Assembly (NCBI GenBank): GCA_006226225.1
Contig: SBHI01000055.1
Coordinates: 1 to 42,510, forward strand
DNA: 42,510 nucleotides
Source of the DNA: Alphaproteobacteria bacterium
GTDB taxonomy: Bacteria > Pseudomonadota > Alphaproteobacteria > Micavibrionales > CSBR16-224
Reading direction: 5' to 3'
The notes below the pieces were generated by a model. The model had not been told where the DNA came from and did no database searches. It worked only from the letters and a program-made list of their open reading frames with translations. How positions within the stretch are numbered: position 1 is the stretch's first letter; each line of letters opens with the position of its first letter. Both the position numbers and the translations under genes were made by a program. Below are positions 6,813 to 42,510 of this stretch, piece by piece.

Positions 6813-6825
6813 GGGTGTTTTCCTT

Positions 6826-12992: not shown

Positions 12993-12998
12993 TTCTTG

Positions 12999-14009: not shown

Positions 14010-14521
14010 GGTGTGCTGCGTTCCCTTTGTCTCATATCAATGCGGCGCATCAGGTTCAATGCGGCTTGACCGGCCAGCCCGAAAGATGCGGCAATATCAT
14101 CGGCAATACTCCCATCGACATCGTCGAGTGCGTTCCGCAGCGAAACAATCGCTTCCGTATCACCGTTTATCTGTAGGTCGCGTGTGAAAAAGACAGCATC
14201 GCCATCAAGACGTCCGTCCACCATGCGCAGTAGCGTTAAGAGACTGCCAGTAATGGAGGCATCAAAATGTAAGTGACGGGTATTTTTATAGGCACGAACC
14301 GATGGCTTTTGCGGGTCGGGTTTCACTAAGAATACAACCGGCATATTGGTCGGGTTCACCAAAATTGTTTTATGGCAGTTATCTCCCAGACGATCGAAAA
14401 TGCGGGGATGTGTGTGGATAATTTTTTTCACGATCCTGTTCAAAACAGGACGATAGAACAACGCTGGTGCCGGACGCAGCAGCAAACGGGGCAGATTTTT
14501 CAACATCATGCTGTGTATCAT
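14006..14521 (-). CDS. ubiT: SCP2-domain lipid-binding protein UbiT
   Basis: It has YhbT-like sequence (DAVFFTRDLQINGDTEAIVSLRNALD). The ORF-track start at 14545 is a TTG. The first ATG, at 14521, gives 171 aa, so the start is uncertain. Confidence 0.78.
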   Translation of the reverse strand: MIHSMMLKNLPRLLLRPAPALFYRPVLNRIVKKIIHTHPRIFDRLGDNCHKTILVNPTNMPVVFLVKPDPQKPSVRAYKNTRHLHFDASITGSLLTLLRMVDGRLDGDAVFFTRDLQINGDTEAIVSLRNALDDVDGSIADDIAASFGLAGQAALNLMRRIDMRQRERSTP

Positions 14522-14587
14522 TGTGAAGTGATCCGTCTTTTGCAATGTATGTGCGCTTAATATAAAACCCTTCTTGTTGGCAGAGAT

Positions 14588-19845: not shown

Positions 19846-22800
19846 ATGAGCTATTTTATCGACCGTATGACCTATTTCGCGAGCAGGAAAGAAGAGTTTT
19901 CCGGCGGCCACGGTATCACGACCGGTGAAAATCGCGCATGGGAAGAAGCTTATCGCGGTCGCTGGGCGCATGATAAAATTGTGCGTTCAACGCATGGTGT
20001 GAACTGCACGGGATCGTGTTCATGGAAGATCTACGTCAAAAACGGGTTGATTACCTGGGAAACCCAACAGACGGATTATCCGCGAACGCGTCCCGATCTT
20101 CCGAACCACGAGCCGCGCGGCTGTTCGCGCGGTGCCAGTTACAGCTGGTATATTTATTCTGCCAACCGTTTGAAATATCCTCTGATCCGCAAGAAGCTGC
20201 TCAAACTTTGGCGAGCGGAAAAAGCTGAAAATGGTGGTGATCCCGTAAAAACATGGCAGACGATCCAAAGTGATCCCGCTAAACGTCGTAGTTACCAAAA
20301 GCTGCGCGGCCTCGGCGGCTTTGTCCGTGCGGAATGGGATGAAGTGAATGAGATTATCGCCGCTGCCAATATCCATACCATTAAAGAACACGGGCCTGAT
20401 CGTGTGATCGGTTTCTCGCCTATTCCGGCAATGTCGATGGTGTCCTATGCGGCAGGATCGCGTTATCTGTCATTGATCGGCGGCGTGTGTATGAGTTTCT
20501 ATGACTGGTATTGCGACTTGCCGCCAGCCTCGCCGCAAACATGGGGCGAGCAGACAGATGTGCCGGAAAGTGCAGACTGGTATAATGCCGGATTTATTAT
20601 TATGTGGGGATCGAATGTCCCGCAGACACGGACGCCGGACGCGCATTTTATGACTGAGGCGCGGTACAAAGGAACGCAGGTCGTGACCGTAACGCCGGAT
20701 TATTCGGAAGCGTCGAAATTCGGTGATATCTGGTTGAATCCTCGTCAGGGAACGGATGCGGCGTTGGGTATGGCGATGGGACATGTTATTCTAAAAGAAT
20801 TCCACCTTGATAAGCCGTCTAAATATTTTGACGACTACTGCCGTTCATATACGGATATGCCGCATCTGGTTAGACTAGAAAAACGTGGCAAGAAATATGT
20901 TCCGGGGCGTTTTATCCGTGCGGCCGATTTCGCAAAATCACTGGGGCAGAAAAACAATCCCGAATGGAAAACCATTTGTCTGGATGAAAATAGCGGTAAC
21001 CCCGTTGTGCCGACCGGTTCCATCGGTTTCCGTTGGGGAGAGGAAGGGAAATGGAATATTGTTCCGCAGGATGCGGCAACAGGGCAGGAGATACGCCCTG
21101 TTAAAACGCTGCTGGGAACGCATGATGATGTTCTGGATGTCGGCTTCCCTTATTTCGGCGGGCTGGATCATGAACACGGCTATTTCACACCGAATGCGCA
21201 AGAGGAAATCCTTGATCGCAAACTGCCGGTGAAATACCTGACGCTGAATGGTAAAAAAACGCCTGTCGTGACAGTGTTTGATCTGCTTTGCGCTAATTAC
21301 GGCATTGCGCGCAAAGGGTTGGATGGTGACCATGTGGCGACAAGTTATGACGAAAATATTCCCTATACGCCGAAATGGCAGGAGAGCATAACGGGTGTTC
21401 CGGCGGAGAATGTGATCCGTGTCGCGCGCGCCTTTGCCGATAATGCGGATAAAACAAAGGGCAAGTCGATGATTATCATCGGTGCGGCGATGAACCACTG
21501 GTATCACATGGACATGAATTACCGTGCGGCCATCAATATGCTGACCTTCTGCGGTTGTGTCGGGCAATCCGGCGGCGGTTGGGCGCATTATGTCGGACAG
21601 GAAAAACTACGTCCGCAAACGGGCTGGTTGCCGCTGGCTTTTGGTCTGGACTGGTCGCGGCCGCCGCGTCAGCAAAACTCGACCTCATTTTTCTATGCCC
21701 ATACCGATCAATGGCGTTATGAAACACTGGGTGTACATGAGATTCTGTCACCGCTGGCAGATAAGAAGAAATGGAAAGGCTCGCTGATTGATTGCAACAT
21801 CCGTGCAGAGCGCATGGGATGGCTGCCTTCGGCGCCACAACTGGAGGAAAATCCCTTGTCTCTCGTGCGTGAAGCGGAGAAAAAAGGGAAAGACCCGGTT
21901 GATTATGTTGTGAGTCGCCTGAAGAAGGGGGATTTGCGCATGTCCTGCGAAGATCCGGACAAACCGGAGAATTGGCCGCGCAACATGTTTGTCTGGCGTT
22001 CCAATTTGTTGGGATCGTCAGGGAAGGGGCACGAGTATTTCCTGAAGCATCTGTTGGGAACGCAACACGGCGTTCAGGGTAAGGACCTCGGGAAACAGGG
22101 GCCGGGCGCTTCGGCAGAGGTCGTTTGGCATGACAAGGCACCGGAAGGTAAGCTGGATTTGCTTGTCACGCTTGATTTCCGGATGTCGACGACATGTGTT
22201 TATTCCGATATCGTTCTGCCGACGGCCAGCTGGTATGAAAAGAACGATCTGAATACGTCGGATATGCATCCGTTTATCCATCCGCTGTCGAAAGCTATTG
22301 ATCCGGTATGGCAAAGCCGTTCTGATTGGGAAATTTACAAAGGTATCGCCAAGAAGTTTTCCGAAATCGTTCCCGGTCATCTGGCAGTCGAGAAGGAGAT
22401 TGTGCTAACACCGATCCAGCATGATACACCGGGCGAATTGGCGCAAAATGATGTGAAAGAATGGCGCAAGAAAGAATGTGATGCGGTTCCGGGAATGACA
22501 ATGCCAGCGATGAAAGTTGTGGAGCGTGATTATCCCGCAACATATGAACGCTTTACATCTCTTGGGCCGTTGATGGAAAAACTCGGTAACGGCGGCAAGG
22601 GTATCGGCTGGAATACCGACCATGAAGTTGATTTTCTGAAGAAACTGAATGGTGAGAAAAACGGCCGGGCGAAAATTGAAAGCGATATTGATGCCTGTGA
22701 AGTCGTTCTGACACTTGCACCGGAAACGAATGGCGAGGTCGCGGTCAAAAGCTGGGCTGCACTTAGTAAAATGACCGGACGGGATCATACGCATCTGGCG

Positions 22801-23586
22801 CTGCCGAAGGAAGAGGAAAAAATCCGCTTCCGTGATATACAGGCGCAGCCGCGCAAAATTATCTCCTCCCCGACATGGAGCGGGCTGGAATCCGAGCATG
22901 TCTGCTATAATGCCGGTTATACCAATGTGCATGAATTTATTCCCTGGCGCACATTGACCGGACGGCAGCAGCTTTATCAGGATCATCCATGGATGATTGA
23001 TTTCGGCGAGGGGCTTGTATCCTATCGTCCGCCGATCAATACGCAGACGGTTGACAAAATGATGAGAAAACACGGTAAGGACTCGCCGACTGTTTTGCTG
23101 AATTTCATTACACCGCACCAGAAATGGGGCATTCACTCGACCTATTCGGATAATTTGCACATGCTGACGTTGTCGCGCGGCGGGCCGATTGTCTGGGTCA
23201 GCGAAACGGATGCCGCAAAAATTGATGTGCAGGATAATGACTGGCTGGAGGTCTTTAACGCCAATGGCGCGATTATGGCGCGTGCTGTTGTGTCACAGCG
23301 CGTGAATGAAGGTATGATGCTGATGTATCACGCTCAGGAAAAAATCGTCAATATGCCCGGCAGTAAAATTACCGGTGCGCGCGGCGGTATTCACAATTCC
23401 GTGACACGGGCAACGGTCAAGCCGACGCATATGATCGGGGGGTACGCCCAGCAGTCTTACGGCTTCAATTACTACGGAACCGTCGGTTCAAACCGGGACG
23501 AATTCGTCATTGTCCGTAAAATTGCGGATGAGGATATCGACTGGATGGAAGAAAAAGAAGAAACGGCAATGGAGGCGGCACGATGA
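19846..23586 (+). CDS. narG: Respiratory nitrate reductase alpha subunit
   Basis: 1246 aa. It has the N-terminal FS0 motif HGVNCTGSCSW and a Mo-bisMGD enzyme body. It overlaps narH (ATGA). Confidence 0.97.
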   Translation: MSYFIDRMTYFASRKEEFSGGHGITTGENRAWEEAYRGRWAHDKIVRSTHGVNCTGSCSWKIYVKNGLITWETQQTDYPRTRPDLPNHEPRGCSRGASYSWYIYSANRLKYPLIRKKLLKLWRAEKAENGGDPVKTWQTIQSDPAKRRSYQKLRGLGGFVRAEWDEVNEIIAAANIHTIKEHGPDRVIGFSPIPAMSMVSYAAGSRYLSLIGGVCMSFYDWYCDLPPASPQTWGEQTDVPESADWYNAGFIIMWGSNVPQTRTPDAHFMTEARYKGTQVVTVTPDYSEASKFGDIWLNPRQGTDAALGMAMGHVILKEFHLDKPSKYFDDYCRSYTDMPHLVRLEKRGKKYVPGRFIRAADFAKSLGQKNNPEWKTICLDENSGNPVVPTGSIGFRWGEEGKWNIVPQDAATGQEIRPVKTLLGTHDDVLDVGFPYFGGLDHEHGYFTPNAQEEILDRKLPVKYLTLNGKKTPVVTVFDLLCANYGIARKGLDGDHVATSYDENIPYTPKWQESITGVPAENVIRVARAFADNADKTKGKSMIIIGAAMNHWYHMDMNYRAAINMLTFCGCVGQSGGGWAHYVGQEKLRPQTGWLPLAFGLDWSRPPRQQNSTSFFYAHTDQWRYETLGVHEILSPLADKKKWKGSLIDCNIRAERMGWLPSAPQLEENPLSLVREAEKKGKDPVDYVVSRLKKGDLRMSCEDPDKPENWPRNMFVWRSNLLGSSGKGHEYFLKHLLGTQHGVQGKDLGKQGPGASAEVVWHDKAPEGKLDLLVTLDFRMSTTCVYSDIVLPTASWYEKNDLNTSDMHPFIHPLSKAIDPVWQSRSDWEIYKGIAKKFSEIVPGHLAVEKEIVLTPIQHDTPGELAQNDVKEWRKKECDAVPGMTMPAMKVVERDYPATYERFTSLGPLMEKLGNGGKGIGWNTDHEVDFLKKLNGEKNGRAKIESDIDACEVVLTLAPETNGEVAVKSWAALSKMTGRDHTHLALPKEEEKIRFRDIQAQPRKIISSPTWSGLESEHVCYNAGYTNVHEFIPWRTLTGRQQLYQDHPWMIDFGEGLVSYRPPINTQTVDKMMRKHGKDSPTVLLNFITPHQKWGIHSTYSDNLHMLTLSRGGPIVWVSETDAAKIDVQDNDWLEVFNANGAIMARAVVSQRVNEGMMLMYHAQEKIVNMPGSKITGARGGIHNSVTRATVKPTHMIGGYAQQSYGFNYYGTVGSNRDEFVIVRKIADEDIDWMEEKEETAMEAAR

Positions 23587-25211
23587 AGGTCAGGGCACAG
23601 ATCGGCAAGGTTCTCAACCTTGATAAATGCATTGGGTGTCACACATGTTCCGTGACATGTAAGAATGTCTGGACTTCACGCGAGGGGGTCGAGTACGCAT
23701 GGTTCAATAATGTTGAAACCAAGCCGGGGGTTGGTTATCCGAAAGAGTGGGAAAATCAGAAAAAATGGAAAGGCGGCTGGCGCAGAAAAGGTAATGGCAA
23801 AATCGAACCTGTGCAGGGCGGCCGCTGGCGGATGCTGGCAAAAATTTTCGGCAACCCCAATATGCCGGAAATCGACGATTATTATGAGCCGTTTACGTTT
23901 GATTACGATCACTTGCAAAAATCTCCGGAGGCAAAAACTTCGCCGACAGCGCGCCCCCGCTCTCTTGTTTCGGGCGAACGGATGGAAAAAATCAAATGGG
24001 GCCCGAACTGGGAAGAAATTCTCGGGACTGAATTTGAACACCGGCGCAAGGATTATAACTTCAAGGATATTGAAGAGGAAATTTACGGCCAGTTTGAAAA
24101 CACCTTCATGATGTATCTGCCGCGCCTGTGCGAGCATTGCCTGAACCCGACCTGTGTGGCGTCCTGCCCGTCCGGCTCTATCTACAAACGGGAAGAGGAC
24201 GGGATTGTTCTGATCGATCAGGATAAATGCCGCGGCTGGCGTATGTGTGTGTCCGGCTGTCCGTATAAGAAAATTTACTATAACTGGAAATCCGGCAAAG
24301 CCGAAAAATGTACCTTCTGTTATCCGCGGATTGAAAATGGTGAACCAACGGTTTGCTCGGAAACCTGCGTGGGGCGTATCCGTTATCTGGGTGTCATTTT
24401 ATATGATGCCGACCGGATTGAAGAAGCGGCAAGCGCGGAGAATGAAGAGGATTTGTATGAAGCACAGCTGAATATTTTCCTTGATCCTCATGATCCGGAA
24501 GTGATTGCCCAGGCCAGAAAAGATGGTATTCCGGAGAACTGGATAGAAGGTGCGCAAAAATCGCCTGTTTACAAAATGGCGATGGAATGGAAAGTCGCAT
24601 TTCCGCTGCATCCGGAATACAGAACCCTGCCGATGGTCTGGTATATTCCGCCTTTGTCGCCGTTACAGGCCGCTGTTGAGGATGGAAAAATTCCGACTGA
24701 CCGGACGGGTATTATGCCGGATCTGAATGAAATGCGTATTCCGGTGAAATATCTTGCCAATCTTTTGACGGCCGGAAAAGAAGAACCGGTGAAAAAGGGC
24801 TTGCAGCGCATGATGGCGATGCGTCATTACATGCGCGGTAAAATGTTCGAGGACACGGATAATAGTGCTGTTCTGAAAGATGTCGGCCTGTCACCGGAAA
24901 TGGTGCAGGATATGTACCGGATCATGGCCATCGCTAATTATGAAGACCGTTACGTCATTCCGACCGGACACCGCGAGGAAACGCTGGATGCTTATGGCGA
25001 AAGCGGCGGCTGCGGCTTTAGCTTCGGTAATGGTTGTTCCACGCATAGTAATAGTGAAACGGATCTGTTTGAAAGTCCGAAAAAATGGCGCGGCAGAAGC
25101 GCATCGGGTAAGGACAATCGGGTCAACACTTTGTTTACACGTAATGAGGATGAAAACCCCTCTGCCAAAAGCGGTGGTTGCGGCGGTGGAAGCTGCGGAA
25201 GCTGCGGCTGA
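23583..25211 (+). CDS. narH: Respiratory nitrate reductase beta subunit, with an extra Cys/Gly-rich C-terminal tail
   Basis: It has ferredoxin-type Cys clusters (CIGCHTCSVTCK, CEHCLNPTCVASCP, CRGWRMCVSGCP, CTFCYPR). At 542 aa it is longer than the roughly 510-515 aa I remember as typical. Confidence 0.96.
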   Translation: MKVRAQIGKVLNLDKCIGCHTCSVTCKNVWTSREGVEYAWFNNVETKPGVGYPKEWENQKKWKGGWRRKGNGKIEPVQGGRWRMLAKIFGNPNMPEIDDYYEPFTFDYDHLQKSPEAKTSPTARPRSLVSGERMEKIKWGPNWEEILGTEFEHRRKDYNFKDIEEEIYGQFENTFMMYLPRLCEHCLNPTCVASCPSGSIYKREEDGIVLIDQDKCRGWRMCVSGCPYKKIYYNWKSGKAEKCTFCYPRIENGEPTVCSETCVGRIRYLGVILYDADRIEEAASAENEEDLYEAQLNIFLDPHDPEVIAQARKDGIPENWIEGAQKSPVYKMAMEWKVAFPLHPEYRTLPMVWYIPPLSPLQAAVEDGKIPTDRTGIMPDLNEMRIPVKYLANLLTAGKEEPVKKGLQRMMAMRHYMRGKMFEDTDNSAVLKDVGLSPEMVQDMYRIMAIANYEDRYVIPTGHREETLDAYGESGGCGFSFGNGCSTHSNSETDLFESPKKWRGRSASGKDNRVNTLFTRNEDENPSAKSGGCGGGSCGSCG

Positions 25212-25229
25212 GGTGGAAAGGACGATATT

Positions 25230-25937
25230 ATGAGAACATTGAAGATTTTAGGAATCTTGCTGAGCTATCCATCTGTGGAACAGGTAAAGGCGTTACCGGA
25301 ATGTCTCGCATTGTTGCGAAAGGAAACATGGCTGCCGCAAACATCCGTGGCGGCACTTGAAGAACTTGCTGGCTGGATGCAGGGGCAGGACATCATGGAT
25401 TTACAGGAGGCCTATGTCGATCTGTTTGACCGGACGCCCTCTCTGTCATTGCATTTATTCGAACATGTTCACGGCGATTCCCGCGACCGTGGTCCGGCGC
25501 TTGTTGATCTGCATAATTTGTATCAGGAAGCGGGGTTGATGATCTCCGTTCATGAAATGCCGGATTATCTGCCGCTGTTTCTTGAATATCTGTCTGTTCT
25601 TCAGCCAGCGCAGGCGGCGCATGACTTAAGTGGCGCGATTGATGTGATAGCGGCTATCGGGGCAAGATTGAAAAACAGAAAAACACCTTATGCCGCGGTA
25701 TTTGATGCTTTGGAAGAGGCGGCGGAACATAAGCCTGATGATAAGGCGATAGCGGCAGCGCTCGCCGAGGATGCGGGCGCACCGCTTGATAATCAACAGC
25801 TTGACCGCGAATGGACCGAGCAGTTTGCATTTGAAAATGCGGCGCAAACCAATCCTGACGGCGGCTGTCCCGCCGCAGAGGATATGGTTAAGCGTATGAA
25901 AGATTCGGTCAATCAGACCGGAGCAGGCTCACAGTAA
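25230..25937 (+). CDS. narJ: Nitrate reductase molybdenum cofactor assembly chaperone
   Basis: Its position between narH and narI and its NarJ-like sequence (LLSYP, YVDLFD) support the call. Confidence 0.9.
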   Translation: MRTLKILGILLSYPSVEQVKALPECLALLRKETWLPQTSVAALEELAGWMQGQDIMDLQEAYVDLFDRTPSLSLHLFEHVHGDSRDRGPALVDLHNLYQEAGLMISVHEMPDYLPLFLEYLSVLQPAQAAHDLSGAIDVIAAIGARLKNRKTPYAAVFDALEEAAEHKPDDKAIAAALAEDAGAPLDNQQLDREWTEQFAFENAAQTNPDGGCPAAEDMVKRMKDSVNQTGAGSQ

Positions 25938-25953
25938 GGAGGCACGCAAGAAT

Positions 25954-26628
25954 ATGGACTATTTTCTGTTTCAGATATTCCCTTATATCGCCATTGCGTT
26001 TTTCGTTCTTGGCTGCATTTTGCGCTTTGACCGTGATCCTTATACATGGCGCAGTAAATCCAGTCAGCTGTTGAGACGCAAGCAGCTTATCTGGGGAAGT
26101 GTCCTGTTTCATTTGGGGATTATTGTGATTTTATTGGGCCATGCGGTCGGTTTGCTGACCCCGATTGCCGTCTTTGATGCGATTGGTATATCACATGGTG
26201 CAAAACAGATATTGGCGATGGTTGCTGGCGGTACGGCAGGTTTCTTCTGTTTTATCGGTTTGGTAATACTGTTGCATCGTCGCTTGCTGGATCCGCGTAT
26301 TCGCGCGAACAGCTCATTTGCGGATATCGCTATTTTGTTTTTGTTATTAGCACAGCTGTGTCTTGGCATGTTGACAATTCCGGTATCCATGAACCATCTG
26401 GACGGGCATGAGATGGTCAAATTTATGGAATGGGCTCAGCATATTGTGACATTCCGCAGCGGTGCGCACGAATTTGTCAGCGATGTCGCATTGGTCTTTA
26501 AATGCCATTTGACACTGGGAATGTTCATTCTTCTGATCTTTCCCTTTACGCGTCTGGTTCACGCGTTGAGCGCTCCTGTCGGGTTTCTGTTCCGCCCCTA
26601 TCAGATCGTACGCCGGAGGGAAAGCTGA
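25954..26628 (+). CDS. narI: Respiratory nitrate reductase gamma subunit (dihaem cytochrome b)
   Basis: 224 aa, 5 TM, with conserved His in TM helices. It is the last gene of narGHJI. Confidence 0.93.
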   Translation: MDYFLFQIFPYIAIAFFVLGCILRFDRDPYTWRSKSSQLLRRKQLIWGSVLFHLGIIVILLGHAVGLLTPIAVFDAIGISHGAKQILAMVAGGTAGFFCFIGLVILLHRRLLDPRIRANSSFADIAILFLLLAQLCLGMLTIPVSMNHLDGHEMVKFMEWAQHIVTFRSGAHEFVSDVALVFKCHLTLGMFILLIFPFTRLVHALSAPVGFLFRPYQIVRRRES

Positions 26629-34082: not shown

Positions 34083-35144
34083 ATGTTTCCACGCCTCGTA
34101 ACCGCCAGCCATGCTGTAGACATTCATATAACCGTCTGCCAGCAGGATTCTGGCGGCTGTGACGCTGCGCTTTCCGCTACGGCAGTAGAGAACGAGGTCA
34201 CAGTCGCGGGGCAGATCCGGGATATTGTTTTGTGACAATAGGGAAAGCGGGATATGCTGCGCCTCTGCAATATGTCCGGCCTGCCATTCATGTGTTTCGC
34301 GTACGTCAATAAAAACAGCCTGCCGGTTTTCCCTTGCCTGCTCCGGCGTGACTTCCGAGATCAATCCGCAGACGGGTGAGCTGTATTCCAGAACGATCTT
34401 GTCTTTCGGTTGGCAACAGACGGAACAAAAGGGGTTTTTAGGTAAGGTAAGGCATTGCGTTTGCATGTCATGCGCGTCAATCATCCATAATTTTCCCGTC
34501 AGCGGTGCAAAGCTTTTATCGGCAACGGCCACTTGTATTGCTTGCAAGGCCTGCTGTGTTCCGACCAGACCCGCGACGGCACCGATAACGCCGGCCTCGG
34601 CGCAGTTGGGGACGTAGGATTGCGGTGGTGCGGGATATAGACAACGATAGCACGGCCCGCCATGTAGGTTAAAGACGGAAACCTGTCCCTCAAATCCGGA
34701 GATGGACCCGTAAATCAGCGGTTTTCCACATTTGATGGCTGTATCGTTGATAAGAAATTTGGCGGCGAAATTATCTGTGCCGTCAATAATGATATCATAT
34801 CCGGAAAAAATATTTTCAGCATTTCCCTCCGTCAGTTCTTCCGTATAGGCGGTGACTTCAATATCGGGATTTAATGCAATCAGCTTATCACGTGCTGCGG
34901 CGGCTTTATTTTGTCCGGTCTGGTCGGTGCTGAACAGGATTTGCCGCTGCAGATTGCTTTCTTCGACGGTGTCGAAATCGACAATGCCCAGATGCCCGAC
35001 ACCGGCAGCCGCCAGATACAGTAAAGCGGGGCAACCAAGCCCGCCAGCACCGATACACAGGATATGGGCGGCGGACAGTTTCTTCTGCCCTTCTTCCGTA
35101 ATCTCCGGCAGGATTGTTTGACGGCTGTAACGATCATTTTCCAT
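34065..35144 (-). CDS. moeB: MoeB/ThiF-type adenylyltransferase fused to a C-terminal rhodanese domain (MoeZ-like sulfurtransferase)
   Basis: It has RYSRQ, the GAGGLGCP nucleotide loop, CxxC pairs, and a C-terminal rhodanese domain with the active-site loop YCRSGKRS. It overlaps the tauE-like gene by 18 nt. Confidence 0.87.
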   Translation of the reverse strand: MENDRYSRQTILPEITEEGQKKLSAAHILCIGAGGLGCPALLYLAAAGVGHLGIVDFDTVEESNLQRQILFSTDQTGQNKAAAARDKLIALNPDIEVTAYTEELTEGNAENIFSGYDIIIDGTDNFAAKFLINDTAIKCGKPLIYGSISGFEGQVSVFNLHGGPCYRCLYPAPPQSYVPNCAEAGVIGAVAGLVGTQQALQAIQVAVADKSFAPLTGKLWMIDAHDMQTQCLTLPKNPFCSVCCQPKDKIVLEYSSPVCGLISEVTPEQARENRQAVFIDVRETHEWQAGHIAEAQHIPLSLLSQNNIPDLPRDCDLVLYCRSGKRSVTAARILLADGYMNVYSMAGGYEAWKHLENHS

Positions 35145-35367
35145 GTGTAAAAGTTACACGGCTTTGCTGTTATACACCAGAGAAGATATGCGGGGAATGA
35201 TATCTTTGTTCCGGTTATATTCCCTGTAAAACAGCGAAGCTGAAGCTTCGAGAGGGCAGCTCGTATGAAGTGCGGCACACCACAATAATAACTTCCTTAC
35301 ATCCTTATTGTCCGGCGGGTTGTTTTGCGCCATTATCTATTGGCCGCTTTTTACAGATGGAGGGCAT

Positions 35368-36210
35368 ATGACAGAAATTGATAAAAAATCGCCGCCGGAT
35401 TTTCCGCAGCTGCATGATATCGGTTTATTCTATGAAAGACTGCATGCGGCTGTCGCGCGTATGAATGCAATTCGTCCTTATGCGCTGGAGGTGCTGGGGC
35501 AGGTCGAGGGATATGATATTTTTCTGCTCTTTCCTGAAGAGCAAGACCCGAAGAAATTGTCGCTGCTATCAGCAGGCGGTTTTCACGGTGAAGAACCTGC
35601 AGGGGTCTGGGGTATCGTTGAATATCTTGAAACGGCGACAGCGGATGAGCTGAACGGCGTTAATCATTCTTTCTTGCCGCTGGTCAATCCAACGGGATTT
35701 GCTGCGGGAACGCGTCTGAATGTTTTCGGTGAAAATCCGAACCGCAGTTTTGTACCGGAGCTGATTGCTGATAACAGTGAAGATATCTATAAAAACAGGA
35801 CAGAACCGTCTGTCGAAGGAAAGATATTGATGGCGCATATTGACCGCCTTGCGACTTTGGCGCGGGATGGTTTTGTGACTCAGCATGAAGATGACGGGCT
35901 GAACGAGGGCTTTATTTTTCTGAGTGAAGACGCGCCCCAGCCCAGCCCCTTTGCTGATATTTTTCTGGCGTGTTTACGGGAGCGTGTCGGCATTATTAAA
36001 GACGGCGGTGCCGATACACTGATCGACCCGAAGCTGCAAAACGGCATCTGGCATAATGATTTCGATGCGACATTCGAAGGGTTGCTCACCCGTAAAGGCA
36101 TTCCGCGTGTTGTCACAACGGAAACGCCCTGTCTGAAACCGGCACGGGCGCGGATTGATTGTAATCGTGATATGATACGTGCTTTTGCGGCTTTCCGGCC
36201 TGCGGAATAG
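35368..36210 (+). CDS. M14-like zinc carboxypeptidase/amidase family protein (MpaA-like), cytosolic
   Basis: The ATG at 35368 follows GGAGGG. It has the HxxE zinc motif in GGFHGEEPAG, then NPTGF and ENPNRSF, as in M14-type enzymes. It has no signal peptide. Confidence 0.55.
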   Translation: MTEIDKKSPPDFPQLHDIGLFYERLHAAVARMNAIRPYALEVLGQVEGYDIFLLFPEEQDPKKLSLLSAGGFHGEEPAGVWGIVEYLETATADELNGVNHSFLPLVNPTGFAAGTRLNVFGENPNRSFVPELIADNSEDIYKNRTEPSVEGKILMAHIDRLATLARDGFVTQHEDDGLNEGFIFLSEDAPQPSPFADIFLACLRERVGIIKDGGADTLIDPKLQNGIWHNDFDATFEGLLTRKGIPRVVTTETPCLKPARARIDCNRDMIRAFAAFRPAE

Positions 36211-36216
36211 GTATTA

Positions 36217-37332
36217 TTACCCGCGCAGATTTTGCGGTTTTCCGGATACGGTGTTTTGCGCGATTTTCTGCTCGGCTGGTGCGCCTGCGGCAGATTTTGC
36301 AGCCTGAGTGATGGCATCCGCGGTATCGGGATACCCGCCTTCTCTGGCGGCTTTTGCCGCGGCTTCGACCGTATCGGCATCATAGGGCAGCTTCTGCATG
36401 GTCAGCAGCGCGATATCATTCAGTCCGTTTTCCCCGGCCGTGACCATAATATTAAAGGCAAAGGCACTTTCATGATCCGCGAAAGAGCGTGAAGCTGTCA
36501 GTAGGGCGGTGGCAAAATCGGGATGGTCGTTCTGCAAACCAGCCTCGACCGCATATTGCACGGCATCACCGTCATAAGGCAGCTTCTCGGTGGTCAGAAC
36601 GGCAATACGGTTCAGCCCGTTTACGCCTGCCATCGCCAGAATATTAAAGGCAAAAGCACTTTCATCATTCGAAAAGGATCGTGATGCTGTCAGCAAAGCA
36701 TCGGCGAAATCCGGCTGCTCATTCTGCAGGGCAACTTCGACAGCGTTTTGCACGGATTCCGCATCATAGGGCAGTTTTTCTGTGGTCAGGACGGCGATGC
36801 GTTCCAGCCCGTTTTCAGCGGCAGTATTAAGAATGTTGAAAGAAAAAGCATATTCATCATCGGGGAACGCCCTGGAAGCTGCCAGAACATTTTCGGCAAA
36901 ATCCGGATACCCGTTTTGCAGCGCGGTTTCGACGGCATTTTGCACGGTTTCGGCATTATAGGGCAGTTTTTCCATGGTCAGCAGGGCGATGTCACTAAGC
37001 CCGTCTTCCGCAGCGGTTTTGAGAATGTTGAAGGCAAAGGCATCTGCGTCCTCGGCAAAAGAAGGGGCGTCTGCCAGTAAAGCGGCGGCTTGATCGGGAT
37101 CGCGGTTTTGCAGTGCGGTTTCGACTTTTTTCTGCAAGGCGAAGCCTTCACTCCAGCTACGCACCTGTTCCTGTATATCAAGAACGGTTCTCTCATCACG
37201 GTCTGCGGACGCGCCGGAAAACTCACTGTCACTGTCGCTTCTCTGCGTCAATCCGAAACCGCCAGCCAGCAAAACAGCTGCGAATGTTGCGATGAGATAT
37301 CCCCGTCTATGCTTCGGTGCTGTACCTGCCAT
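36217..37332 (-). CDS. Signal-anchored repeat protein with four exact 64-aa tandem repeats plus a partial fifth (ankyrin-like half-repeats)
   Basis: It has an N-terminal basic + hydrophobic segment (KHRRGYLIATFAAVLLAGGFG). The repeats begin at aa 66, 130, 194 and 258, with a partial one at 322. The consensus is VQNAVExALQNxxPDFAxxLLxASRxFxxDExAFxFNILxTAxENGLxRIAxLTxEKLPYDxx. Confidence 0.6.
   Translation of the reverse strand: MAGTAPKHRRGYLIATFAAVLLAGGFGLTQRSDSDSEFSGASADRDERTVLDIQEQVRSWSEGFALQKKVETALQNRDPDQAAALLADAPSFAEDADAFAFNILKTAAEDGLSDIALLTMEKLPYNAETVQNAVETALQNGYPDFAENVLAASRAFPDDEYAFSFNILNTAAENGLERIAVLTTEKLPYDAESVQNAVEVALQNEQPDFADALLTASRSFSNDESAFAFNILAMAGVNGLNRIAVLTTEKLPYDGDAVQYAVEAGLQNDHPDFATALLTASRSFADHESAFAFNIMVTAGENGLNDIALLTMQKLPYDADTVEAAAKAAREGGYPDTADAITQAAKSAAGAPAEQKIAQNTVSGKPQNLRG
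36370..37137 (-). repeat. In-frame 192-bp tandem repeat x4 inside the CDS, with a partial fifth copy extending to about 36298
   Basis: The exact 64-codon periodicity is visible in the translation, and recurring DNA blocks are visible too (..CATAGGGCAGYTTYTC..GGTCAG..AATATTAAAGGCAAARGCACTTTCAT..). Confidence 0.8.
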
Positions 37333-37459
37333 AATGCCGTCCTTCGCTCTGCTATAGTGTATTTTTGTGGTTTAATACATATTATATGAAAAAGGTAAAA
37401 AGAGTGTTTACGGCGGCGCAATTATCTTTCACGATGAATGCAGTGTCGAGAAACAGGGG

Positions 37460-38584
37460 ATGCGCGTGAATAAAAATTTTTGGAAAAACAGGCTGTACAA
37501 CGACAATACCCGTAAAAGAGCCCTCTATATCTATCTGCCAATTCTGTTGGTGTTGCTGGCGAATGTGGCGGTGGAGATGTTCGTGACGCCGAAGAGTAAT
37601 TTTCTGAATCCTTCTCAGTCTTTTAAGGATAATATTCCGGTTGTTTACAGTCCGCATTACAACATCTCCTTTCGCGGGCTGGAAAATCTACATCCGTTTG
37701 ACAGCAAAAAATACGGGCGAATTTATACGGAACTGAAACAGCAAAAACCGGATGCTGTGCCGCGTTTTATCACGGCGGCAAAGCCCGATGCGGCGCTGCT
37801 TGGTCTGGCACATACGGCGGAATATCTCGAAACGCTGCAATATGCCCGCACCATTGCCCGCATTACCGAATTGGGTTTCTTGCGTGTCCTGCCGGATAAG
37901 CTGGCAAATAATCTGGTGCTGGAACCGATGAAGTATCAGGCAGGCGGCAGCTTACAGGCGGCTTTGGCTGCGCTGGAACATGGCTGGGCGGTTAATCTGG
38001 GTGGAGGCTTTCATCATGCGTCCTCTGGTAACGGCGAAGGGTTCTGCCCGCTGGCGGATATCGGCATGATCATCAAATATTTGCGCCGCGAGGGAAAGAT
38101 CAAAAAGGCGATGATTATTGATCTGGATGCGCATCAGGGCAACGGTCATGAAACGGATTTTACGGGGGATGAGGATGTTTATATCCTTGATATCTATAAC
38201 AGTGAAATTTATCCGCATGATACAAAAGCCAAGCGCGGTATTGATCAGGCGGTCGAATTGCGTGCCTTTTCCGGTGATAAACTGTATTTCGGTTTGCTTG
38301 ATCAGGCGTTGCCACAGGCATTCACGGCATTTCAGCCTGATATTGTCATTTACATTGCCGGTACTGATATTCTGGATGGTGATCCGTTGGGTGCGCTCGC
38401 CATTTCCGCAGACGGAATTCTTAAACGCGATGAAATGGTTTTCCGGCAGGCTTTTGATCATGATGTGCCTGTCGTGATGCTACTGGGCGGCGGATATCAG
38501 AAAAGTAATGCGCATATTATCGCGCAAAGTATTTTGAATCTGGACAGAAAATTCGGGCTGTTTTCCAGCGCAGGAAAACATTGA
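37460..38584 (+). CDS. Class IV (HDAC11-type) zinc deacetylase/deacylase with an N-terminal transmembrane anchor
   Basis: Long colinear similarity to human HDAC11 as I remember it. Matching segments are VYSPHYNISFRGLENLHPFDSKKYG, GGGFHHASS, IIDLDAHQGNGHE, AGTDILDGDPLG and GGGYQK. It is preceded by KRALYIYLPILLVLLANVAVEMFV. Confidence 0.88.
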   Translation: MRVNKNFWKNRLYNDNTRKRALYIYLPILLVLLANVAVEMFVTPKSNFLNPSQSFKDNIPVVYSPHYNISFRGLENLHPFDSKKYGRIYTELKQQKPDAVPRFITAAKPDAALLGLAHTAEYLETLQYARTIARITELGFLRVLPDKLANNLVLEPMKYQAGGSLQAALAALEHGWAVNLGGGFHHASSGNGEGFCPLADIGMIIKYLRREGKIKKAMIIDLDAHQGNGHETDFTGDEDVYILDIYNSEIYPHDTKAKRGIDQAVELRAFSGDKLYFGLLDQALPQAFTAFQPDIVIYIAGTDILDGDPLGALAISADGILKRDEMVFRQAFDHDVPVVMLLGGGYQKSNAHIIAQSILNLDRKFGLFSSAGKH

Positions 38585-38664
38585 CATTACGGAAAATAAT
38601 TGTTAAGGTAACGCATCGAAAAATAACGGAAAACCATTTTTAAAAGACAGGCGGAGATACGGCA

Positions 38665-39081
38665 TTGCCCTCACAGACAAAGCTGGATAACTATATGATT
38701 ATGGCTGCGGTTCAAGGCAAAGATGATGATTTGCAGGAGCAGATCCGCATGGGCGCGAACCCGCGCGCCTATAAGGATGCCGCGCTTTACGCCGCCGCAG
38801 GGAAGGGACACACCTCTACGGTCTTGCTGCTTTTGGAAATGGGGCTGGATATCCATGCGGATGAAGATCAGGCAATTCGAAGCGCTGCAAAAAATGATTT
38901 TGAAGAAACCGTCGGTGTACTGATTTTACACGGGGCGGATTTTTCAGTATTGCCGGAAGACCAGCAGGAAAAGTACCGCCATCTGGTGCCGAAAACGCGG
39001 GAGGAGCTGCGCGCCGAACAGCAATCCGCAGTACGCGTACGACAAAATTCGCTCAGGAATTTTATCCGGAACCGGCGCTGA
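38665..39081 (+). CDS. Small ankyrin-repeat protein (about 3 repeats) with a basic C-terminal tail
   Basis: AALYAAAGKGHTSTVLLLLEMGLDIHADED and AIRSAAKNDFEETVGVLILHGADF fit the ANK consensus. The start is uncertain: TTG at 38665 with GGCGGAGA upstream, or ATG at 38695 or 38701. Confidence 0.78.
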   Translation: MPSQTKLDNYMIMAAVQGKDDDLQEQIRMGANPRAYKDAALYAAAGKGHTSTVLLLLEMGLDIHADEDQAIRSAAKNDFEETVGVLILHGADFSVLPEDQQEKYRHLVPKTREELRAEQQSAVRVRQNSLRNFIRNRR

Positions 39082-40477
39082 AGCGGCTGCCGGTTTTTTG
39101 CACTTGGCGCGGTGCGGTGGGCGCAGTTTTTGCCAGAACCGCTTCACTAGCCTGTCCCAGATTTTTCAGACCGTTTTGTTCAAAACCGGCTCTCTCCCAC
39201 AGCATTTCAATCGCGCCGACACTGATATCGCGCTTTGTGACCGGACTGACAAAAGACAGTTTTGTATTTGCAAAGGGAACGGTGTTGCCCGTTTTATCAA
39301 GTCCGAGCGGTGCATCAAAATGTTTTGCAACAGCGGTGTCAAAATCCATGCCGCCGCCGCGCGCCACACTGTAATTCATCACCGATATGTGGGAATGGGC
39401 ATAGCGCTGCATGCGGGACAGGCTGTTTGTGTCATATTCAGCACCGCTTTCTGTGAGGGAGGTAATTTCTCCGCGGCACAACGCTTCTTTTACCATTGTT
39501 TCGGCATGTGCGATATGAGGCTTGTCACCGTAAAGACTGTGTTGCTGTAGGTTGGACAGAATGGTTGTGCCGACCCGGCTTTGGCATAGATGTTGAAAGC
39601 AGATGCGGTCTTGTAATTGCGCAGATGTTCCCAGTTTTTCCGTTAGGGCCTCAATATCCGTTTTCCCTTCGGCAAAGTCCGGATAATGGCTGCTTTTCAT
39701 CAGCAATTGTAAAGCGGTTTTGTACTGTGCCGTATGTGCCTGTAATTCGTTCAGATGAAATATTTCTCTGTATGCGTTCACGTCTCCCATACTGTCTGCC
39801 ATGATGCCTTTCCTGTCCTGATCGTAATGGCAGGTTTCATGGACAATGTTCAGACAAAGCTTACCGATAATGTCTGCCTCATCCATTTCGGGGTCGTAAA
39901 ACAAGGTTAGCTCTTTACTGTCGGGTGAGAAGCTGCCGCTGAGGGCACTGTTTTGTGCGGGGCGCAGATTGACTGTCATATCATTGTCACGCAAAAGCTC
40001 TGCCACCGTATTGCATTGCGGCAAATCCGCTTCTTCGAGAAATTTGATACAGGCGCGCAAAAGTTTTGCGTTCTGTCCTGTGGCGCCGTGATTAAGATCA
40101 CTGAGTTTAAAGCGCGTACAGTCGTCCTGCCAATCTGTGTAAATTCTACTGTTGATGTCCCTTCGCTCGGCTGCGAGAACATCATTGCCCAATCCTTTCT
40201 TTTCCGCCATATCGACCATAGCGGCATAAACCATTTCCGCTTCGGTCTCGACTGCGGCTTTCTCATTTGTGATCAAATGAATGCTGTTTCCTTCGGCATA
40301 ACATTGTTTGCCGTTGCGTTTAATCTGGCTGTGCAGACGCGGGTGACCAAGCTGCTCCATGAGAGAGGCGGCCTCGGGATGCATATCCTGCATCGTTTTT
40401 TCAATTTGCCGCTGCAACGGCGAGATCGCGAGTTTGCGAAACGTCTCTTTCAGCGTTTTTAAGACATTTTTTCCCAT
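39062..40477 (-). CDS. Hypothetical 471-aa protein with an HExxH motif (putative gluzincin-type metallopeptidase)
   Basis: It has LNIVHETCHYDQ, with a candidate third ligand Glu in NELQAH about 30 residues downstream. It has no signal peptide or TM segment. Its 3' end overlaps the ankyrin gene by 20 nt. Confidence 0.4.
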   Translation of the reverse strand: MGKNVLKTLKETFRKLAISPLQRQIEKTMQDMHPEAASLMEQLGHPRLHSQIKRNGKQCYAEGNSIHLITNEKAAVETEAEMVYAAMVDMAEKKGLGNDVLAAERRDINSRIYTDWQDDCTRFKLSDLNHGATGQNAKLLRACIKFLEEADLPQCNTVAELLRDNDMTVNLRPAQNSALSGSFSPDSKELTLFYDPEMDEADIIGKLCLNIVHETCHYDQDRKGIMADSMGDVNAYREIFHLNELQAHTAQYKTALQLLMKSSHYPDFAEGKTDIEALTEKLGTSAQLQDRICFQHLCQSRVGTTILSNLQQHSLYGDKPHIAHAETMVKEALCRGEITSLTESGAEYDTNSLSRMQRYAHSHISVMNYSVARGGGMDFDTAVAKHFDAPLGLDKTGNTVPFANTKLSFVSPVTKRDISVGAIEMLWERAGFEQNGLKNLGQASEAVLAKTAPTAPRQVQKTGSRFSAGSG

Positions 40478-40489
40478 GCAAATATTATA

Positions 40490-40503
40490 TAATAAGCTTA
40501 TTA
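40490..40503. promoter_or_regulatory. Perfect 14-bp palindrome TAATAAGCTTATTA in the divergent promoter region
   Basis: Read directly. On the minus strand it is followed by TATAAT, then 6 nt, then the ATG of the HExxH gene. Confidence 0.3.
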
Positions 40504-40574
40504 AATAATGGTTTCCGCGGTTTATATATTTTCTCTCTTGTAGTTTTGATTATTCGGGCGCAATACTAAAATCC

Positions 40575-41249
40575 ATGACAAATGATGTAACGATACCTAC
40601 GGTTCTGCATAACGCCGCCGCCATATTCCATGCACGGATTGTGGAGGATTTGTTTGAAAAAGGCTGGTCAGTACAGCCTGATTACCTCGGCATCGGACTG
40701 GCGGCGGTGCTCAAAATGCGGATGACGGAGCTGGAGGAAGCGGCGGCGCTGACACCGGCGGGAATCGGGCGGGAGAATGATAACCGCATTGCCAAGGATA
40801 TCCGCCGTGACAGCACTTTCTGGCTTGATCCTGCAAATAGTACGGATCGCGAATATACGGAACTGATGGAGGATTTGCGCCTGACGCTAAACCGTCATCT
40901 GTTTCTGGGTTTATTTGAGTATGAAGCGCATTACGCCCTCTATCCGGCAGGCGGTTTTTACAAGAAACATATTGATGCATTGAAAGGCGGCAAGAACCGT
41001 ATTGTCTCGACGGTTTGCTATTTGAATGAAGACTGGCAGGAAAAAGACGGCGGCATGCTGACATTATTTGACCGCAATGACCATAGCCGTGTTGTGAATA
41101 TCGTTCTGCCGGAAGAAGGGAGCATCGCCGTTTTCCTTAGCGAGGATATTCCGCATGAAGTGACACCAGCGAATCGCGTGCGCCGCAGTATCGCGGGTTG
41201 GTTTCGTTGTAATACTTCCTCGGCAGAACGGGCGAACCCTCTTATTTAG
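40575..41249 (+). CDS. 2OG-Fe(II) oxygenase of the prolyl-4-hydroxylase / PHD (SM-20-related) type
   Basis: It has the HxD facial-triad motif (KKHIDAL), the distal His (IPHEVTP) and the 2OG-binding Arg (RRSIAGWF). At 224 aa its size is typical of bacterial PHD-like proteins. Confidence 0.78.
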   Translation: MTNDVTIPTVLHNAAAIFHARIVEDLFEKGWSVQPDYLGIGLAAVLKMRMTELEEAAALTPAGIGRENDNRIAKDIRRDSTFWLDPANSTDREYTELMEDLRLTLNRHLFLGLFEYEAHYALYPAGGFYKKHIDALKGGKNRIVSTVCYLNEDWQEKDGGMLTLFDRNDHSRVVNIVLPEEGSIAVFLSEDIPHEVTPANRVRRSIAGWFRCNTSSAERANPLI

Positions 41250-41976
41250 GTGGTGTGTTTTCAGGAGCATCGGTTTTACTGCCGCAATGCGCTTCTTCCT
41301 GTGCAAGATTTTCCGGCGTATCTATTTTATTCTGCCGTTGCGCCACCTGCAGGCGCAATTGCCGCACAAGCGGTCTGGCAGCAGCGGCAAGCTGCCTTTT
41401 CATCTCTTTGCGTTTGGCGGTTCTTTGTTCGGCTGTTACCGGCCCGATACCCTGATAGCCGATATTGCGGATATGCTGTAAAAGCTCGATCTTGATGGAG
41501 GGGATCATTTCACGGATGGTGTCGATATCAATGATAATATGGCGGTTTTCATGGGCACGGACGACATCGGCGTAACATTTGTCATCCGTGATTTCCTTGG
41601 CGATAAAAACACTGGCCTGATAAGTGATGATAAACGTCGCATGTTCGAAGTAAAGGCAGGATTTGCCGTCCTGATCCGTCCATGTGTTGAAACCCATACG
41701 CAGACGATGTCCCAGCTGGCGCATGGTCACACCGTCCAAAAAATCTGTTCCGGACGAGGCTCCTTTATGACTGGCAAAGGAGGTGCCGGAAGGTGTCGTC
41801 ATGCCCTGCGCCAGCTGCGTGCCGGAAAAATCGGTATTATAAAGCGTCTTCTCGGCGGCAAAATGCACATAAACCTGCGGCGGAGGTTTGACCGGGCAGA
41901 CAACCAGTCCGGCGGAAAGGATGCTGGCGGCAGCACCGTGTTTTAGAAGGAAGGCGGTTGCGGAAAGAAAGCCCAT
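41242..41976 (-). CDS. Secreted HExxH-motif protein, paralogue A (244 aa)
   Basis: It has an N-terminal hydrophobic signal-like segment and the motif VVRAHENRH. It is clearly paralogous to the next gene, with shared blocks CLYF.HATF.ITY, VFIA+E, KCY.DVVRAHE..H, GYQG.GP and IDTPEN. Confidence 0.45.
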   Translation of the reverse strand: MGFLSATAFLLKHGAAASILSAGLVVCPVKPPPQVYVHFAAEKTLYNTDFSGTQLAQGMTTPSGTSFASHKGASSGTDFLDGVTMRQLGHRLRMGFNTWTDQDGKSCLYFEHATFIITYQASVFIAKEITDDKCYADVVRAHENRHIIIDIDTIREMIPSIKIELLQHIRNIGYQGIGPVTAEQRTAKRKEMKRQLAAAARPLVRQLRLQVAQRQNKIDTPENLAQEEAHCGSKTDAPENTPPK

Positions 41977-42510
41977 CTACTGTGCCTGCGGAGGAGTTGA
42001 AAGTCCGAGCTGCTTCTTCAGTAATTCAAAGTCGATATGGGGAAAATCCCCCGGGCATTTCGCCTGTTCACGCAGGTAGTTTTCCGGCGTGTCAATCGCA
42101 CTTTGGCGTTCCCTGACGGCGACACGGAGTTTTTCGATCATGGGAATTGTGGCCTGCATGACTTGTTTTTGCAGTTCTTTCTGTTTGGCTTGTGCGGCTT
42201 GCAGTTTCATCGGGCCGAAACCCTGATAACCAAGGGAGCGCAGATAAAGCAGCATATCCGATTTGATGTGCGGGATATACTCCTGAATACTCTTGATATC
42301 AATGGCGACATGCTGCATTTCATGGGCGCGGACGACATCGAGATAGCATTTTTTGTCCAAAGCTTCTCTGGCGATAAAGACAGCAGGGTAGTAAGTGATG
42401 GCAAATGTGGCGTGGGAAAAATAGAGACAGATATTTCCTGCTTTATCACTTCTGGTCGTGAAATTCAGAAAAAATTTGTGACTGACCTGCCGGGCGGTCG
42501 TGCCGTGCAC
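41977..42510 (-). CDS. HExxH-motif protein, paralogue B (5' end outside the window)
   Basis: It has VVRAHEMQH and the same conserved blocks. Its stop codon (41977-41979) directly abuts the start codon of paralogue A (41974-41976). Confidence 0.45.
   Translation of the reverse strand: MHGTTARQVSHKFFLNFTTRSDKAGNICLYFSHATFAITYYPAVFIAREALDKKCYLDVVRAHEMQHVAIDIKSIQEYIPHIKSDMLLYLRSLGYQGFGPMKLQAAQAKQKELQKQVMQATIPMIEKLRVAVRERQSAIDTPENYLREQAKCPGDFPHIDFELLKKQLGLSTPPQAQ

Follow-up and report, generated by a model that had tools for sequence, protein, structure and literature searches.

The present study examined a block of seven genes at positions 36217-42510 of contig SBHI01000055.1 (locus tags EP349_), a metagenome-assembled genome (MAG) contig of Alphaproteobacteria bacterium whose entire length of 42,510 nt is called the window. 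The block brings together a class IV deacylase, an ankyrin-repeat protein, a prolyl-4-hydroxylase-type oxygenase, a larger repeat protein and three HExxH proteins, and on balance it is probably a lineage-specific neighbourhood of independently acting genes, retained in one narrow clade of uncultured Alphaproteobacteria, rather than one co-transcribed system. This reading is favoured because the genes fall into at least five transcription units, their synteny is confined to a narrow clade, the parts occur alone elsewhere, the deacylase gene is dispensable, and the products are spread over different compartments. It is also favoured because the oxygenase (PPHD) and class IV deacylase (HDAC) families are characterised and occur broadly in bacteria, and because no signal of mobility or of a known system was detected. 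An earlier interpretation, made from the letters alone and hereafter called the sequence-only reading, had described the block as a module of eukaryote-like protein-modification genes, for which either a writer/eraser/scaffold system or a host-targeting effector set was conceivable; a check of the open reading frames placed all seven genes exactly where it had put them, and its domain calls for the HDAC, the ankyrin repeats (Ank) and the 2-oxoglutarate (2OG) oxygenase were confirmed by Pfam.

Organisation and distribution of the block

The features of the block, in window coordinates, are as follows.

36217-37332, minus strand: rep371, a protein of 371 aa with four repeats of 64 aa and a predicted periplasmic orientation (open reading frame, repeats, hydrophobic N-terminus)
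37333-37459, no strand: divergent intergenic region rep371/HDAC, with a conserved sigma-70-like promoter facing rep371
37460-38584, plus strand: HDAC, a class IV (HDAC11-type) Zn-dependent deacylase of 374 aa with an N-terminal signal anchor (PF00850)
38665-39081, plus strand: Ank138, a protein of 138 aa with about three ankyrin repeats, predicted to be cytosolic (Ank_2, Ank)
39062-40477, minus strand: Z471, a protein of 471 aa, predicted to be cytosolic, putative gluzincin-type metallopeptidase (invariant HExxH, AlphaFold2 (AF2) model and Foldseek)
40478-40574, no strand: divergent intergenic region Z471/PPHD-like gene, with a conserved promoter-like TATAAT segment
40575-41249, plus strand: PPHD-like prolyl-4-hydroxylase of 224 aa, predicted to be cytosolic (PF13640, match to 4iw3/4j25)
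41242-41976, minus strand: Zsec244, a 244-aa HENRH protein, predicted to be exported (family alignment, signal peptides in some members)
41977-42510, minus strand: Zsec', the C-terminal 177 aa of an upstream tandem paralogue with HEMQH, cut by the contig end

The strand order of the seven genes (-, +, +, -, +, -, -) implies at least five transcription units, namely rep371 (minus), HDAC-Ank138 (plus), Z471 (minus), PPHD (plus) and Zsec'-Zsec244 (minus), so that the block is not the run of co-directional, closely spaced genes expected of a single operon, and the idea of a single module lost ground accordingly. Convergent overlaps were found between the Ank138 and Z471 genes (20 nt) and between the PPHD and Zsec244 genes (8 nt), and the block contains two divergent promoter regions (rep371|HDAC and Z471|PPHD). 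With regard to location, three of the products lack any hydrophobic segment, whereas three or four carry anchors or signals.

The GC content of the block (0.48-0.53) is close to that of the remainder of the window, no tRNA gene was found for the block, and an Rfam scan of positions 35000-42510 returned no RNA family match. Tblastn searches for plasmid carriage gave no match for Zsec or Z471. PADLOC and PHROGs returned only generic domain matches for the block (Ank, 2OG) and no defence or phage system, and no secretion-system or integrase genes were present among the Pfam families called for neighbouring genes in the window and within 10 kb in related loci. These results bear out the statements of the sequence-only reading that the genes match no known pathway and that the window holds no secretion-system or mobility genes.

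The gene order Zsec-PPHD-Z471-Ank-(HDAC)-rep371 recurs in about six related metagenomic loci. The clade loci compared were the window and the six below, whose proteins are 55-95% identical to those of the window.

L101: PGM / 221-aa gene-Zsec'-Zsec-PPHD-Z471-Ank-HDAC-rep / AstE-MoeB; reveals the content past the window end
L102: PPHD-Z471-Ank-rep-AstE-MoeB-molybdenum cofactor (Moco) genes; HDAC remnant
L002: left side as in L101; RimM-S16-Ffh on the right
L004: block without HDAC
L009: tsf / Zsec-PPHD-Z466-Ank-rep / AstE-UbiE; single Zsec copy, no HDAC
L024: short contig with a PPHD-Zsec pair

Sequence conservation extends to the spacers. In the rep371/HDAC spacer, which has promoter-like sites on the minus strand at 37449-37421 and 37410-37381, the segment CCGTAAACACTCTTTTTACCTTTTTCATATAATAT is kept in L101, L002, L004, L009 and L102, and the Z471/PPHD spacer is conserved in L101 and L002. 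The only motifs shared among the spacers of the block were TATAAT-like elements and words of 8-10 nt, the latter judged without a chance control, and an FNR box was absent from the Z471/PPHD spacer and from the whole block.

Outside the clade the components occur apart. Among 80 PPHD-like metagenomic loci with 32-89% identity, a module neighbour was present in one, the 89% locus, while the other 79, including those at 54-60% identity, had no other module gene within the recovered stretch (up to 8 kb per side). Likewise, no module gene lay within 10 kb in six loci with Z471 homologues of 31-36% identity (four GTDB genomes and two contigs), and the four Zsec contexts examined outside the clade contained no other module genes. 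Co-occurrence of the components was thus seen within the clade only and not across distant lineages. The sequence-only reading had held that its proposal would fail if homologues occurred only singly, in unrelated contexts and with no conserved synteny: the related loci do share the gene order, and to that extent the proposed neighbourhood stood, while the PPHD, Z471 and Zsec homologues outside the clade are indeed single and in unrelated contexts.

Proteins predicted to reside in the envelope

The HDAC protein matched the Hist_deacetyl model in Pfam (PF00850; 2.4e-53, residues 78-358), and its best PDB matches were 9gz5/9rjd (6.8e-41), representing Leptospira interrogans liHDAC11/B, followed by the clade A structure 9rje (1.1e-36). 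Class IV structures as a whole scored from 7e-41 to 1e-30, compared with 1.5e-22 for HDAC6 and 1e-16 or weaker for class I, and the pairwise scores were 144 bits to the clade B representative and 130 bits to that of clade A. The motifs GGGFHH, DLDAHQGNG, GTD and GGGY align with 9gz5 and 9rje, covering the His-His dyad, the Zn ligands D/H/D and the Tyr, whose roles in class IV catalysis are given in PMC13325672. In addition, the protein shares the Phe gatekeeper and the GFC foot-pocket residues reported for long-chain class IV deacylases (PMC13325672, PMC11532494). Unlike the class IV relatives compared (L. interrogans liHDAC11/B, 9rjd/9gz5, and Vibrio cholerae HdaH of cluster 5b), it has a 43-residue N-terminal extension composed of a transmembrane (TM) segment and a basic tail, which is kept in L002 and L101; in a 2026 survey of class IV enzymes, the sole mention of "transmembrane" found by text search concerns ciliate class IV enzymes. 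The TM segment reaches a KD19 of 2.27, and eight of the first 20 residues are K or R, an arrangement for which the positive-inside rule predicts a periplasmic catalytic domain. The designation of this protein as a membrane-anchored deacylase of the HDAC11 type has therefore held up. According to two papers, class IV deacylases arose in prokaryotes and occur widely among bacteria (PMC13325672, PMC11532494).

Presence or absence of the HDAC gene is polymorphic among the loci; the site lies between the Ank and rep371 genes, at 37333-38664 in the window, 2531-2866 in L102, 5685-5858 in L004 and 11812-11968 in L009. In L102, the spacer between the Ank and rep371 genes retains a remnant consisting of the last 52 HDAC codons (322-373; tblastn 1.4e-27), a deletion of about 1 kb having removed the remaining HDAC gene together with its upstream region. 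In L004 and L009, the gene is wholly absent and sequence is conserved at both edges of the gap. The HDAC gene is a dispensable accessory gene of the block that has been lost by deletion in relatives, and because it was repeatedly deleted while the remaining block persisted, it is unlikely to be integral to the writer/eraser/scaffold system that had been suggested, a suggestion against which the losses in L004, L009 and L102 speak directly. In those genomes that retain it, the enzyme may hydrolyse medium- or long-chain N-acyl amides in the periplasm.

The rep371 protein was described in the sequence-only reading as signal-anchored and repeat-bearing, and both properties were recovered: a hydrophobic N-terminus (KD19 1.7 at residues 11-29, preceded by KHRR) and four tandem repeats of 192 nt (64 aa) with 73-75% DNA identity. 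Pfam gave no match. Profile comparisons by hhalign returned E values of 0.084 against Ank138 and of 0.017 against a consensus designed ankyrin repeat protein (DARPin) sequence, both at very low probability but with a consistent register, and in the PDB the rep371 profile matched a designed ANK protein at E 0.027, suggesting at most a marginal likeness to ankyrin. The family comprises six clusters among 5.8 billion proteins, all with at least 70% identity, and is present in the clade only. It would be a signal-anchored, helical repeat protein of the envelope, with four repeats of 64 aa.

For the two small HExxH proteins, the prediction of tandem paralogues proved correct, as Zsec244 and Zsec' share 47% identity; the contig end truncates the second of them. 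The complete Zsec' of relatives is 252 aa long, and the portion in the window is 95% identical to the L101 gene and 72% identical to the L002 gene. Tandem paralogue pairs recur in L018. An exhaustive profile search (proteins P0017-P0165) recovered 870 representatives of the Zsec family at E<=1e-3 and 158 at E<=1e-10. In 31 diverse members, C27, C107, C134, H142, H146, D219 and C231 are invariant, with E143 almost fully conserved, and the family has a signature of its own, made up of four Cys plus Q-x3-D-T-x-E-N-Y. No Pfam or NCBIfam model covers the family. The closest comparisons are DUF922 (PF06037) and eCIS_core/DUF4157 (PF13699), which are HExxH families of unproven function and, like Zsec, small with the HExxH placed after beta strands. 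Each was matched by two of the 31 members, with best E values of 0.027 and 0.03, respectively, far below the Pfam thresholds; for DUF922 the best score was 15 bits against a cut-off of 27, so that the Zsec proteins do not qualify as members of that family. The AF2 model had a pLDDT of 72, and no PDB match was obtained either by fold (Foldseek noise only) or by sequence profile.

In several Zsec members, a canonical Sec signal peptide stops short of the first invariant Cys, and the proteins are therefore predicted to be exported and disulfide-bonded rather than lipoproteins. A lipoprotein assignment was considered and rejected, since in several members a signal peptide of the AxA type terminates ahead of the invariant Cys, and position -1 frequently has a residue other than G, A or S. 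One or two exported HExxH...D proteins per genome, with two predicted disulfides, may accordingly be regarded as putative periplasmic metallohydrolases. In two unrelated loci, the Zsec gene is flanked by genes for a YkuD L,D-transpeptidase and a GIDA-family (TrmFO-like) protein, a context that hints at a role in the cell envelope, and another relative is accompanied by a response regulator and an MHYT kinase.

Directly upstream of the first Zsec gene, beyond the window end, related loci contain an element consisting of an A-tract, a stable hairpin and a U-tract (L101 4530-4593; L002 9165-9229; L009 8485-8543; L004 2295-2350). Its distance to the start codon is 7-12 nt in L101, L002 and L009 and about 35 nt in L004, where the U-tract is weak. 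The sequences, folded singly, gave z-scores of -4 to -6, and L004 shows a compensatory change from CCGUCC/GGACGG to CCAUCC/GGAUGG; RNAalifold on a MAFFT alignment was uninformative, the 3' arm being misaligned. L009 retains the element although the gene upstream is a different one, tsf. The element resembles a bidirectional terminator, but the space left is too short for a promoter, and it could instead act as an attenuator or by sequestering the Shine-Dalgarno sequence.

Proteins predicted to reside in the cytosol

The PPHD-like protein matched PF13640 (2OG-FeII_Oxy_3; 4e-21) and PF13661 (4e-16). Over 193 residues (20-212) it aligned with 4iw3/4j25, which we take to be Pseudomonas putida PPHD, at 158 bits and E 1.5e-45, compared with about 1e-11 for human PHD2. 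The HxD motif (H132-I-D134), H194 and the Arg of RRSIAGW align with those of 4iw3 and PHD2 and are invariant in four orthologues. Like Pseudomonas PPHD, the protein is of similar length (224 aa, against 229 residues in the solved chain) and combines the PF13640 fold with the iron triad and the 2OG-binding Arg, so the profile and alignment evidence classes it as a PHD/P4H-type oxygenase with PPHD as its closest characterised relative, in agreement with the type given in the sequence-only reading. Unlike the PPHD-like loci outside the clade (32-60% identity), the oxygenase gene is here flanked by Z471 and Zsec genes. On the strength of the 158-bit similarity to the P. putida protein, the probable role of the enzyme is the O2-dependent modification of a translation factor, for example EF-Tu; the Pseudomonas PPHD is known to hydroxylate EF-Tu (PMC4543633).

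Two further suggestions of the sequence-only reading depended on this protein. The first was an analogy with animals, in which ankyrin repeats are substrates of the 2OG oxygenase FIH, and the likeness is indeed that a 2OG oxygenase gene lies near ankyrin-repeat genes. FIH is a JmjC-type asparaginyl hydroxylase, whereas the enzyme of the block is of the PHD/P4H type (PF13640) and closest to the EF-Tu prolyl hydroxylase; the analogy does not transfer for this reason, and no evidence was found that ties the oxygenase to the ankyrin proteins. The second was the label "eukaryote-like", which is inappropriate given that PHD-type hydroxylases, which are widespread in bacteria (PMC4543633), and class IV HDACs are both old and widespread in this domain (PMC13325672, PMC11532494, PMC4543633).

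Z471 lacks a signal or TM segment. Its HETCH motif (H213-E-x-x-H217) is invariant among seven sequences of the family, down to 31% identity, as are R237-E-x-x-H-L-N-E-L-Q-A-H248 and RMQRYAHSH. The invariant E244 (NELQAH) is a candidate metal ligand. The family is rare, comprising seven clusters among 5.8 billion proteins, and no sequence-level match was found in Pfam, NCBIfam or the PDB, profile search included. The AF2 model (pLDDT 77, pTM 0.76) was compared with the PDB by Foldseek, and the top matches, all weak, were selecase, abylysin and jannalysin, followed by IrrE, SprT and BlaR1; the best had E 0.17, a probability of 0.92 and a target-normalised TM-score of about 0.42. As in minigluzincins, the HExxH is followed some 25 residues on by an invariant Glu-containing helix (HLNELQAH), and the predicted core aligns with selecase over 88 residues at a root-mean-square deviation of 3.8 Å. 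Unlike the minigluzincins (selecase, abylysin/jannalysin), IrrE/M78 and SprT/Wss1, Z471 is four times larger and has additional N- and C-terminal domains that match nothing. Z471 is thus interpreted as a putative gluzincin-type metallopeptidase whose predicted core is weakly minigluzincin-like and whose large extra domains are unmatched, and it would act in the cytosol. One distant homologue belongs to an uncultured 'Micavibrio sp.' MAG. In three related MAG loci (L006 9020-9820, L015 8967-9767 and L017 8963-9769), a gene with a CHAP domain (cell-wall amidase type) is divergent from a distant Z471 homologue, which is followed by a gene with a Glu_synthase domain.

The 3' end of the Z471 gene overlaps that of the Ank138 gene, and the two genes are adjacent in every clade locus that spans them. 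Ank138 matched Ank_2 (2e-7; 31.9 bits against a cut-off of 27.3) and Ank (2.8e-4; 21.5 against 21.1 bits), has no hydrophobic segment, and ends in a conserved, basic, arginine-rich tail (RVRQNSLRNFIRNRR). Every related locus has an orthologue (55-86% identity) at the corresponding position. The match to the Dot/Icm effector AnkY in NCBIfam was weak (E 0.0016; 17 bits against a cut-off of 600). Ank138 may serve as a protein-binding adaptor in the cytosol.

Neighbouring genes and alternative explanations

The main neighbouring features of the window are as follows.

35368-36210, plus strand: AstE/AspA-like Zn deacylase of 280 aa, with the ATG of the L001 and L101 gene calls (AstE_AspA_cat 8.4e-6)
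6081-8838: NrdG/NrdD
12054-14545: two Peptidase_U32 genes and an SCP2 gene, presumably UbiU/V/T-like
19846-26628: NarGHJI-sized genes

The AstE-like protein matched the Shewanella-type N-acetylornithine deacetylase of NCBIfam at 2.4e-51 (174 bits against a cut-off of 400), and its gene adjoins the rep371 gene in five of the six informative loci (the window, L101, L102, L004 and L009; not L002), so that it may be either a part of the block, to which the sequence-only reading had not assigned it, or a housekeeping neighbour. On the other side, just beyond the window end and upstream of the Zsec genes, relatives encode a clade-specific protein of 221 aa with no Pfam match (L101 3849-4514; L002 8484-9149; L004 1626-2291), which is absent from L009. 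Positions 6071-29482 of the window constitute an anaerobic-lifestyle gene set that, besides the genes listed, holds two NarK-sized genes, a Crp/Fnr regulator, NnrS and Moco biosynthesis genes. FNR-box-like sites (TTGATNNNNATCAA, at most one mismatch) occurred eight times in the window compared with 2.6 expected, all of them in the anaerobic set and none in 35000-42510. Co-regulation of the block with the adjoining anaerobic genes by FNR was considered and is unsupported, the boxes being enriched in the window and missing from the block. At the contig start (696-5166), a CusB-like membrane-fusion protein with domains that bind heavy metals (HMBD, HlyD_D23) precedes a 1047-aa open reading frame of RND-pump size, which suggests a metal-efflux system.

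Several observations weigh against a neighbourhood of independently acting genes. The Zsec, PPHD, Z471, Ank and rep371 genes keep their order and orientation in every clade locus that spans them, down to 55-59% identity, while the outer genes vary, being PGM, tsf or a nucleoside deoxyribosyltransferase gene on one side and AstE-MoeB, AstE-UbiE or RimM on the other. Such an invariant core amid changing flanks fits selection for linkage. In addition, Z471, rep371 and the 221-aa neighbour are almost restricted to the clade, and their independent function is assumed. In favour of independent action, by contrast, the flanks too are partly conserved, with PGM in both L101 and L002 and AstE in five loci, and ordinary phylogenetic inertia would therefore be enough to explain the conserved order; the genomes are too few to gauge the background rearrangement rate of the clade.

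A first alternative is that the five core genes form a coupled, clade-specific module across the inner membrane, with the HDAC and the AstE-like deacylase as optional accessories, in which PPHD, Ank138 and Z471 would provide an O2-responsive modification or proteolysis step with its output on the rep371 scaffold and the Zsec hydrolases. This is a less likely reading, in favour of which stand the constant order and orientation of the core between changing outer flanks, the sequence conservation of the divergent promoter regions Z471|PPHD and Ank/HDAC|rep371, the presence of several clade-restricted novelties that are found only together, and the fact that in the window, L101 and L102 the block adjoins the anaerobic genes with their many FNR boxes. 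However, no pair of the genes co-occurs outside the clade, the block is divided into five transcription units on alternating strands, and its spacers have neither an FNR box nor any common motif beyond TATAAT-like elements. Moreover, the block lies away from the anaerobic genes in L002 and L009, and the known PPHD substrate is EF-Tu and not an ankyrin protein (PMC4543633). A more specific form, in which the core would be a trans-envelope circuit whose O2-dependent PPHD-type hydroxylase marks Ank138 or Z471 and thereby controls periplasmic remodelling by the rep371 scaffold and the Zsec metallohydrolases, is rather unlikely. A narrower and more modest version, independent of the circuit, would hold that Zsec is a large uncharacterised family of periplasmic metalloenzymes and that the HDAC is a periplasm-facing deacylase acting on envelope acyl-amides.

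A host- or prey-targeting effector set, as entertained by the sequence-only reading, is improbable. It would require Ank138 and Z471 to be translocated by a type IV or other system encoded elsewhere, with host or prey surfaces as the targets of the deacylase and the exported HExxH proteins. Among effectors, ankyrin proteins and HExxH zincins are frequent, and Micavibrio, to which the MAG with a distant Z471 homologue is attributed, is a genus of epibiotic predators; the conserved arginine-rich tail of Ank138 and its weak AnkY match point in the same direction. On the other hand, the N-terminal anchors of the HDAC and rep371 would hold both proteins in the membrane of the producer, and these two and the small HExxH proteins, with their anchors or Sec-type N-termini, have the features of envelope residents. 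Besides the lack of secretion-system genes reported above, the repertoire of the window is that of a free-living facultative anaerobe (NrdDG, NarGHJI and Moco genes), the HDAC is decaying in relatives, and neither a plasmid location nor a composition anomaly was detected. Finally, a toxin-immunity or anti-phage pair with the Z471 zincin as toxin and the ankyrin protein as immunity, which the constant adjacency and overlapping 3' ends of the two genes and the existence of ankyrin-repeat immunity proteins in polymorphic toxin systems might suggest, is very improbable, as the genes are convergent rather than co-directional, Z471 has no recognisable N-terminal delivery domain, its distant homologues have no ankyrin neighbour, and the PADLOC match was to a generic ankyrin only.

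Were the block a single system, it would tie prolyl hydroxylation in bacteria, which is a candidate oxygen sensor, to proteolysis and envelope biology, and the present evidence does not support such a connection. What is new lies in the individual families, namely the Zsec family, with about 870 representatives, no Pfam or NCBIfam model and a signature of HExxH, Asp and four Cys, the rare 471-aa zincin-like Z471 family, and an evolutionarily labile, signal-anchored class IV HDAC in bacteria with a predicted periplasmic orientation. More generally, "eukaryote-like" domain combinations in a MAG can arise by the plain adjacency of old bacterial families.

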